Assembly: GCF_044324785.1 (NCBI RefSeq)
Contig: NZ_CP172127.1
Direction: 5' to 3' (one strand)
Length of the DNA stretch: 64,000 nucleotides
Source: Escherichia coli
Lineage (GTDB): Bacteria > Pseudomonadota > Gammaproteobacteria > Enterobacterales > Enterobacteriaceae
Below the pieces are notes generated by a model. It saw only the letters and a program-made list of their open reading frames with translations. It searched no databases and was not told where the DNA came from. The translations under genes were made by a program, and so were the position numbers. Shown piece by piece: positions 42,024 to 42,320 of this stretch (the stretch's first letter is position 1; every line of letters begins with the position of its first letter).

Positions 42024-42299
42024 TTATCTGGTTTGTTTTCGTAATTGTTCGGCACAATAGTCTAGATGTGTTTGCAGATCCTGCATAGACATCTGTGAGC
42101 TGGTGACGTAGTTAATCAGTGCAGTCAGTTCGGCAAGTGGGCCATCGACATTAAATCCATCCTTATCGAGATCCCGGAGTAATTTCATCAAGTGCGATCC
42201 CTCCACCAGTGACCTGACGCCTCCCGGCGTGTGAATCCTTTCGGTAAATCCGTCTTCCAGTGGATAGTGATACTGCTGCATCTTATCTTCTCCATGCAA
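42024..42299 (-). CDS. small protein homologous to the antirepressor C-terminal domain; candidate SOS-controlled antirepressor
   Basis: 91 aa; YHYPLEDGFTERIHTPGGVRSLVEGSHLMKLL...AELTALINYV...LQTHLDY parallels YSAPLKPGYRSLIHSPSGVLGLTEHSLLMNLL...AELTTMFCYI...IQTHAEY of the two Ant proteins; a LexA box lies immediately upstream. Confidence 0.55.
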   Translation of the reverse strand: MHGEDKMQQYHYPLEDGFTERIHTPGGVRSLVEGSHLMKLLRDLDKDGFNVDGPLAELTALINYVTSSQMSMQDLQTHLDYCAEQLRKQTR

Positions 42300-42300
42300 T

Positions 42301-42320
42301 AACTGTATAAATATACAGTA
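42301..42320. promoter_or_regulatory. LexA box (SOS operator) AACTGTATAAATATACAGTA
   Basis: CTGT-N8-ACAG with an AT-rich spacer, 18 of 20 to the consensus TACTGTATATATATACAGTA as I recall it; 2 bp upstream of the 42299 start codon. Confidence 0.65.

Follow-up and report, generated by a model that had tools for sequence, protein, structure and literature searches.

Kim and Ryu reportedly showed in 2013 (J Virol 87:11775) that the LexA-controlled Ant protein of SPC32H inhibits the phage repressor by protein-protein contact, and Kim et al. are said to have described the structural mechanism of the SPC32H Ant/Rep pair in 2016 (PNAS 113:E2480; PDB 5D50, 5D4Z). The P1 immI operon has another layout, in which a C4 antisense RNA controls an antirepressor. 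For several Salmonella prophages, including SPC32H, PMC7380047 describes how self-cleavage of LexA permits the production of an antirepressor, which blocks the lytic repressor through direct contact between the two proteins; non-cleavage is reported for the SPC32H-type class of repressors. According to PMC9638917, it is the tetrameric form of SPC32H Rep that binds DNA, and this tetramer is broken when the Ant tetramer takes up two Rep dimers. PMC9986798 further assigns to the C-terminal part of this Rep a second HTH-like domain and a tetramerisation domain, while its C-terminal domain is said there to mediate both tetramerisation and the contact with Ant.

The locus considered here belongs to a phiV10/epsilon15-like prophage (Uetakevirus, epsilon15-like podovirus) that occupies about 6.8–47 kb of the window, i.e., the whole 64-kb stretch of DNA analysed. 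Positions 41900–42480 are 96–98% identical to the Escherichia phages phiV10, HEMP4, phiv142-3, ZX5 and TL-2011b, all of them Uetakevirus, and at least a part of the locus is matched in 555 of 5,426 complete E. coli genomes (about 1 in 10). The small gene at 42024–42281, which PGAP labels “hypothetical protein” in the E. coli records listed, is in all probability the ant gene of this prophage, and its product, an orthologue of SPC32H Ant, would act as the SOS-released antirepressor of Rep. A common gene order is found in phiV10, SPC32H and epsilon15, where the end of the structural operon is followed by ant, on the opposite strand, and then by the divergent tailspike gene; the ant gene of the window has the same placement: it follows the structural operon, and the tailspike gene diverges from it. 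The two genes of the switch are the following:

42024–42281 (stop included), minus strand: ant, probable 85-aa antirepressor, orthologue of SPC32H Ant (5D50_E, PHROG 450, conserved ATG and SD)
12989–13573, minus strand: rep, encoding a repressor of 194 aa homologous to SPC32H Rep (5D50_A, only HTH in Pfam)

The small ORF also admits a longer reading (42024–42299, minus strand) from a TTG start, which gives the 91-aa protein proposed by an earlier sequence-only reading of this DNA. That the ORF is real stands, but not its length. On the gene's strand, the DNA 3' of the LexA box reads ATTGCATGGAGAAGATAAGATG, with a GGAG ribosome-binding site at 42290–42293, followed 8 nt later by ATG 42281. This ATG and the GGAG are invariant in 8 related phages, whereas the Klebsiella relatives lack TTG 42299; moreover, the annotated phiV10 gene (258 bp), the SPC32H gene (261 bp) and the crystallised 86-aa chain all begin at the equivalent ATG. 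Since the SD and ATG are conserved and the TTG is not, and since the orthologue has 86 aa, we ruled out the TTG start: translation probably begins at ATG 42281, for a product of 85 aa, and the LexA box, previously placed “2 bp” from the start codon, lies 19 nt upstream of it. When Ant was compared to the PDB with phmmer, the single match was chain E of 5D50 (“Anti-repressor protein”, 86 aa, E 4.1e-47), with residues 2–84 of Ant aligned to 3–85 of 5D50_E, and a tblastn comparison showed Ant to be 88% identical to the SPC32H gene annotated ant. Ant also matches PHROG 450 (E 9e-48), itself labelled “unknown function”, and is covered by no family model in Pfam or NCBIfam; a Pfam match to DUF724 (E 0.004) was discarded as noise.

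Rep, for its part, matches 5D50_A (“Repressor”) over its full length (E 4e-42) and its C-terminal half matches 5D4Z_A (E 4e-20), so that both proteins are homologous to the members of the crystallised pair. It is 100% identical to phiV10 Rep and 42% identical to Rep of SPC32H, in the GenBank record of which the genes are annotated as rep and ant. Using tblastn, Ant was found in 35 of 50,697 phage records, while full-length matches to Rep were found in 36, the accessions listed being largely the same as for Ant. This co-occurrence in essentially the same three dozen or so records argues for a working cognate pair. Because Rep is 42% identical to its SPC32H counterpart, compared to 88% for Ant, the proposal that Ant binds Rep in the phiV10 lineage is an extrapolation from SPC32H. 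The same disparity, i.e., a Rep that has diverged while Ant has not, could be taken to mean that the LexA-controlled small protein has ceased to act on the Rep of its own prophage, and that it targets the repressor of another prophage or serves mainly as an oligomerisation partner of the two large paralogues described below. Antirepressor action on non-cognate repressors is indeed documented, e.g., for Gifsy and Fels-1 (PMC3121763), and one genome here holds three copies of a domain that is tetrameric in SPC32H Ant. Yet, the nearly shared set of records favours a cognate pair, and both partners are tightly conserved among the E. coli phages listed (at least 97.6% identity for Ant, 98.5–100% for Rep), and we consider such a change of target very unlikely.

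The preferred reading, in which Ant is released by the SOS response and acts on Rep, further depends on the region upstream of ant, where three elements can be recognised:

42301–42320, no strand: LexA (SOS) box, AACTGTATAAATATACAGTA, reading TACTGTATATTTATACAGTT on the strand of the gene
42327–42356, minus strand: putative ant promoter, with a −35 TTGCAA (42351–42356) and a weak −10 CAAATT/ACAAAT (42327–42333)
42358–42372, no strand: operator-like palindrome TTACC-N5-GGTGA, adjoining the −35 of ant, in the interval that separates ant from the divergent tailspike gene

The near-consensus SOS box is present as had been claimed. It matches the consensus TACTGTATATATATACAGTA at 18 of 20 positions (2 mismatches) and is the sole site within 3 mismatches of that consensus in the 64 kb, with 0 expected from 100 shuffles. 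The bare core CTGT-N8-ACAG exists in 4 copies in the window, versus about 1 expected, which means that the signal is carried by the full 20-mer and not by the core; among these 4 copies, only 42301–42320 has the AT-rich spacer and the TA flanks. The box could be aligned in all 8 phages compared, including phiV10, SPC32H, epsilon15, Tyrion, BUCT554 and two Klebsiella phages, and its distance to the start codon is constant across relatives, while the neighbouring spacer differs. It is thus kept across genera, even though the intergenic DNA of the Enterobacter and Klebsiella members is otherwise only about 75% conserved; in the Klebsiella relatives, one half-site is ATGT in place of CTGT. LexA would be expected to bind 42301–42320 in this phage as well. 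The promoter was read from the letters and from an alignment with TTGCAT-17-TGATAT of SPC32H. Its −10 hexamer agrees with the consensus at 3 of 6 positions, hence a weak sigma-70 promoter by this measure, and it is absent from the calls of the consensus promoter scan. If it is correctly placed, the LexA box would span about +1 to +20 of the ant transcript.

Given the conserved operator-like palindrome next to its −35, ant may respond to regulators other than LexA as well. Pushed to its limit, this argument would have the palindrome at 42301–42320 not be a working LexA site, with ant mainly controlled by a phage regulator acting through the TTACC-N5-GGTRA motif near the −35. Consistent with this, 42358–42372 is invariant in 8 phages, the homologous site of epsilon15 is annotated as a repressor binding site, and the motif recurs between genes at about 15 points of the prophage. 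However, 42358–42372 could just as well belong to the divergent tailspike promoter, where TTGCAA and TATCTT would flank it on the plus strand, and the LexA box has 18 of 20 consensus positions, is unique in the window and is kept across genera; besides, LexA control is the mechanism reported for SPC32H in PMC7380047. Exclusive or predominant control by a phage regulator hence appears highly improbable.

Regarding the repressor, the sequence-only reading had seen no LexA/CI-type autocleavage module, and the profile searches agree: Pfam recognises HTH families only in Rep, without Peptidase_S24, and NCBIfam yields nothing beyond sub-threshold HTH-type matches. Induction driven by RecA-stimulated self-cleavage of Rep, with Ant as an accessory, would call for a cryptic cleavage motif, which is possible in principle but for which no positive support was found, and it is scarcely tenable for a protein devoid of a Pfam Peptidase_S24 match and homologous over its full length to SPC32H Rep, the C-terminal part of which consists of a tetramerisation domain along with another, second HTH-like domain, in a class of repressors reported as non-cleaved.

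Taken together, the homology of the two proteins, the conserved box and the lack of a cleavage domain make a chain running from DNA damage through LexA cleavage, ant expression and Rep capture to derepression the most likely one. In the lysogen, host LexA would sit on the SOS box, at the 5' end of the ant transcript, and thereby keep the gene silent. After DNA damage, RecA would become active, LexA would cleave itself and ant would be transcribed. Ant would then bind Rep (12989–13573), which has no autocleavage module of its own, and, on the model of SPC32H, a tetramer of Ant would capture two Rep dimers and disrupt the DNA-binding Rep tetramer, so that Rep would come off its operators and lytic genes would be expressed. 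The prediction that the small protein is a LexA-repressed antirepressor of a non-cleavable repressor is therefore supported, both by the SPC32H orthologues and by the conserved box, but it had been made without recognising that this exact system (SPC32H ant/rep) is already characterised: the SOS-controlled Ant switch of the window is its E. coli (phiV10-type) version. In practical terms, a gene left blank in databases (PGAP, Pfam, NCBIfam, PHROG 450) would receive its correct functional call. Induction of phiV10-type prophages through a LexA-controlled Ant, and not through repressor cleavage, would also help to predict which antibiotics and stresses mobilise them, and would be relevant to the engineering of phiV10-based reporter phages.

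The operator-like motif next to ant is part of a larger series. Indeed, (A)TTACC-N5-GGTAA(T) occurs perfectly at ten sites in the span of the prophage and with one mismatch at about five more, while only about 0.05 sites would be expected by chance even for the looser TTACC-N5-GGTRA, and those sites that were placed against the ORFs fall between genes. The series looks like a dispersed operator set, probably for Rep. In addition to 42358–42372, three features of this kind deserve mention:

13629–13691, no strand: two TTACC-N5-GGTRA palindromes, between rep and a divergent cro-like gene (13728–13958), probable operators
41965–42005, no strand: perfect palindrome with 18-bp arms, just 3' of the ant stop, centred on TTACC-N5-GGTAA (41978–41992)
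41992–42020, minus strand: promoter-like TTGTAA-17-TATATT from the consensus scan, the last −10 base of which (41992) is shared with the core 41978–41992

The long palindrome at 41965–42005 was also considered as an intrinsic terminator. It forms a very stable hairpin, but it has no U-run and the operator-like motif stands at its centre, while Tyrion retains the layout of a promoter and an operator motif after ant, without the long arms. For these reasons, we read it as a putative promoter/operator and not as a terminator.

Beyond the switch itself, the prophage encodes two larger proteins related to Ant:

41021–41713, minus strand: large paralogue 1, 230 aa, Bro-N followed by a C-terminal Ant-like domain (Pfam Bro-N E 4e-13; PHROG 130/450)
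8115–8765, minus strand: large paralogue 2, 216 aa, AntA followed by a C-terminal Ant-like domain (Pfam AntA E 2e-27)

As had been noticed from the sequence alone, the small protein is homologous to the C-terminal domain (about 85 aa) of both. In BLASTP, Ant is 42% identical to the product of 41021–41713 over 74 aa (residues 149–222, E 6e-16) and 40% identical to that of 8115–8765 over 78 aa (residues 135–212, E 2e-15). Concerning the N-terminal modules, the “BRO-N-like” label of the former corresponds to Bro-N, whereas the latter, described as “Ant/Rha-like”, is AntA according to Pfam. Across the shared domain, the two large proteins hardly differ, and their genes have in common a block of some 270 bp with sharp boundaries and about 98% DNA identity, which extends about 25 nt beyond the stop codons. 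Such a bounded block, extending past the stops, is the signature of a recent module exchange between the two loci. This block had escaped the sequence-only reading, as had the dispersed palindrome and the RNA elements located before both large paralogues.

To appreciate how widespread the shared domain is, an exhaustive profile search was carried out over 1.84 billion representatives. It returned only 64 clusters, most of them stand-alone proteins of 80–95 aa, while in about ten clusters the domain is C-terminal in proteins of 115–320 aa. The N-terminal parts of these fused forms are Bro-N (4), Phage_pRha (3), AntA (1) and ORF6N (1). The fused forms were accessible only through this exhaustive search, a word-indexed protein search giving close stand-alone homologues only. 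Four types of N-terminal modules, along with the 270-bp block identical at about 98%, bear out the earlier idea of domain shuffling around a common module. Within the phage collection, every genome encoding a fused form also encodes the small Ant and Rep. This distribution is compatible with the shared domain being a Rep-binding unit, but a pure role in tetramerisation would fit it as well.

Each large paralogue is preceded by structured RNA elements:

41868–41944, minus strand: IsrK-type RNA, with a1/b1 target hairpins and an intrinsic terminator (Rfam RF01394, 74.7 bits vs. a gathering score of 50)
41762–41849, minus strand: C4 antisense RNA, upstream of the Bro-N gene and on the same strand (Rfam RF01695, 78.6 bits vs. 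a gathering score of 45)
41722–41730, minus strand: C4-loop target CUACAAAGG, complementary to the C4 loop CCUUUGUAG
8806–8895, minus strand: sRNA-Xcc1-type structured RNA, upstream of paralogue 2 (Rfam RF02221, 64.8 bits vs. a gathering score of 53)
8775–8782, minus strand: ACAAACAG, adjoining the SD of paralogue 2 and complementary to the loop CUGUUUGU of the sRNA-Xcc1-type RNA

In front of paralogue 1, the terminator of the IsrK-type RNA is at 41874–41887, and RF03163 also matches this RNA, with 38.4 bits, under its gathering score of 46.7. The target CUACAAAGG lies 9–17 nt 5' of the ATG of the Bro-N gene, in the ribosome-binding region, and the AGACCAA of C4 pairs with UUGGUCU both at 41913–41919 (the IsrK loop) and at 41752–41758 (just past C4). 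When looked at by eye, the structured stretch 41868–41957 might pass for a tRNA, but ARAGORN finds none and Rfam gives IsrK and C4. This IsrK/C4 module, 3' of ant, is present in phiV10, ZX5, Tyrion and Kp4865-1, and absent from SPC32H, epsilon15, BUCT711 and BUCT554. In front of paralogue 2, a second copy of ACAAACAG is found at 8966–8973, in an upstream hairpin with a terminator after it. On the basis of these complementarities, we propose that each large paralogue is held by its own P1 immI-like antisense-RNA control.

If so, a single Rep-binding domain might exist under three controls, the free Ant being governed by LexA/SOS and the Bro-N and AntA fusions by two different C4-type antisense RNAs, a scheme that we put forward only tentatively. 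For the Bro-N copy at least, the putative promoter also bears a site resembling a Rep operator. Should the fused copies bind Rep, the loss of Rep caused by Ant would derepress the isrK-C4-BroN/Ant operon, a positive feedback that would lock in induction. Other conceivable roles of the RNA-locked copies are an induction independent of SOS, or an anti-immunity during superinfection, as in P1. Our search of the open literature revealed no description of an SPC32H-type switch coupled to P1 immI-type modules, and any novelty is possibly limited to this combination of an SOS switch with two RNA-locked proteins bearing the same domain. Together with the dispersed operator-like motif, these two proteins are the only part of the locus that could teach us something new about how temperate phages combine several induction inputs.

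Among known systems, SPC32H Rep/Ant/LexA is the most similar to the one of the window: the phage belongs to the same genus Uetakevirus, its Ant is 88% identical and of the same length, its Rep is a full-length homologue without S24, its LexA box has the same position upstream of ant, and ant is divergent from the tailspike gene. On the other hand, its Rep is only 42% identical to Rep of the window, neither SPC32H nor epsilon15 has an IsrK/C4 module and a Bro-N/Ant-domain gene after ant, and the window prophage has, compared to SPC32H, an extra third Ant-domain gene near int.

The parallel drawn by the sequence-only reading with phage 186 Tum and the Gifsy prophages is sound as far as the mode of action is concerned, but it does not extend to homology. 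Like ant, tum is a LexA-repressed gene outside the immunity region, the product of which inactivates a non-cleavable repressor (annotation; PMC3121763). In contrast, Tum has 146 aa, one half of which is DinI-like, and comes from an unrelated phage family; a single pairwise BLASTP comparison with Ant gave E 0.06 (14/46 identities), and Ant has no DinI-like match in Pfam, which led us to reject Ant as a Tum homologue. Similarly, GfoA, GfhA and GftA (Gifsy) and FsoA (Fels-1; Lemire et al. 2011) are small LexA-controlled antirepressors of short repressors lacking a cleavage motif, and they can act on non-cognate repressors (PMC3121763). The Gifsy-1 genome record, which is part of the phage collection searched, nevertheless has no tblastn match to either Ant-domain query at E 1e-3, and the Gifsy complexes are described as A2B2 (PMC3121763), as opposed to the Ant tetramer with two Rep dimers of SPC32H in PMC9638917.

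Finally, the locus of paralogue 1 resembles immI of P1/P7 (c4 RNA, icd, ant), with a succession of a putative promoter, IsrK target hairpins and terminator, C4, a target at the RBS and an antirepressor-like gene. At the DNA level, its IsrK/C4 module matches isrK-STnc1160-orf45-anrP of Gifsy-1, a locus described in PMC4825925. The RNA module in front is therefore shared, while the Bro-N/Ant-domain protein is not an AnrP homologue (BLASTP E 3.3), Ant being unrelated to AnrP too. Unlike Gifsy-1 and P1, the window locus has no evident orf45/icd-like leader ORF and, again in contrast with these two, its RNA module is located directly 3' of a LexA-controlled ant.

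Downstream of ant, the LexA-controlled 85-aa antirepressor gene (42024-42281, minus strand), the intergenic region carries an RNA module, while a different RNA family occurs in front of the AntA/Ant-domain gene (8115-8765, minus strand):

41762-41957, minus strand: IsrK-type RNA (RF01394) and C4 antisense RNA (RF01695), between ant and the Bro-N/Ant-domain gene
8806-8895, minus strand: sRNA-Xcc1-type RNA (RF02221), upstream of the AntA/Ant-domain gene (whole region 8775-8973)
~8985-9015: near-consensus promoter-like TTGACA-18-CATACT, near the sRNA-Xcc1-type RNA

The first module lies directly downstream of ant, and both the IsrK loop and the ribosome-binding region of the Bro-N/Ant-domain gene (41021-41713, minus strand) are complementary to the C4 loops. 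The module is predicted to be a translational lock similar to P1 immI and Gifsy-1 isrK. At the other locus, the loop CUGUUUGU of the sRNA-Xcc1-type RNA is complementary to ACAAACAG at the Shine-Dalgarno (SD) sequence of the AntA gene; a second copy of ACAAACAG, also complementary to the loop, is found in an upstream hairpin, which is followed by a terminator. The region is predicted to behave like a second C4-type lock with a different address.

Over ~270 bp (40995-41265 vs. 8090-8360), the two large antirepressor-like genes are ~98% identical at the DNA level in their 3' parts. The shared block continues ~25 nt beyond the stop codons, and its upstream edge is sharp; 33 kb separates the two loci within the same prophage. 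The pattern indicates that the two loci recently recombined with each other or underwent gene conversion. The Bro-N/Ant-domain gene of phiV10 and the O157 typing phages matches in two pieces, corresponding to two annotated CDSs (phiV10 3132-3811), and appears split or frameshifted, unlike the window copy; the older phiV10 record labels it "putative anti-immunity protein". Regarding the family of the ant product itself, which is experimentally characterised, neither Pfam nor NCBIfam has a model, PHROGs gives "unknown function" and PGAP "hypothetical protein" (among the E. coli genomes listed), an annotation gap that could be closed from literature already published.

Beyond these RNAs, the following elements were located:

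41965-42005: perfect inverted repeat (arms of 18 bp) that directly follows the ant stop codon
6774, 12855, 12917, 13629, 13677, 14014, 15960, 16022: starts of 15-nt palindrome sites, first part
20286, 20304, 23431, 40934, 41978, 42358, 45587: starts of 15-nt palindrome sites, remainder
40293-40874, minus strand: PHROG 5954 gene, function unassigned, downstream of the Bro-N gene

The 171-nt stretch holding the inverted repeat folds at -76.5 kcal/mol (z -9.3), and no U-run was found at the repeat. Its centre is the operator-like motif (site 41978) and its left arm holds the -10 of a promoter-like site; in the related phage Tyrion, motif and promoter are retained, but the long arms are absent.

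The palindrome of the listed 15-nt sites, (A)TTACC-N5-GGTAA(T), is present in the prophage span at ten sites without mismatch and about five sites with one, compared to a chance expectation of 0.05 sites for the looser form TTACC-N5-GGTRA, and every site placed against ORFs is intergenic. One of them (40934-40948) precedes the 40293-40874 gene, whose product has no NCBIfam match; because its PHROG match begins at residue 49, the listed ATG is probably too early and the true start later. A tRNA-Arg gene (anticodon TCT; 23032-23108, minus strand) lies within the prophage, next to the site at 23431; the late genes around it are on the other strand. The palindrome is probably the operator of Rep, the 194-aa prophage repressor, or of another phage regulator. 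In P1, the C1 operators are scattered over transcription units, and the candidate operators of the window prophage are dispersed in the same way.
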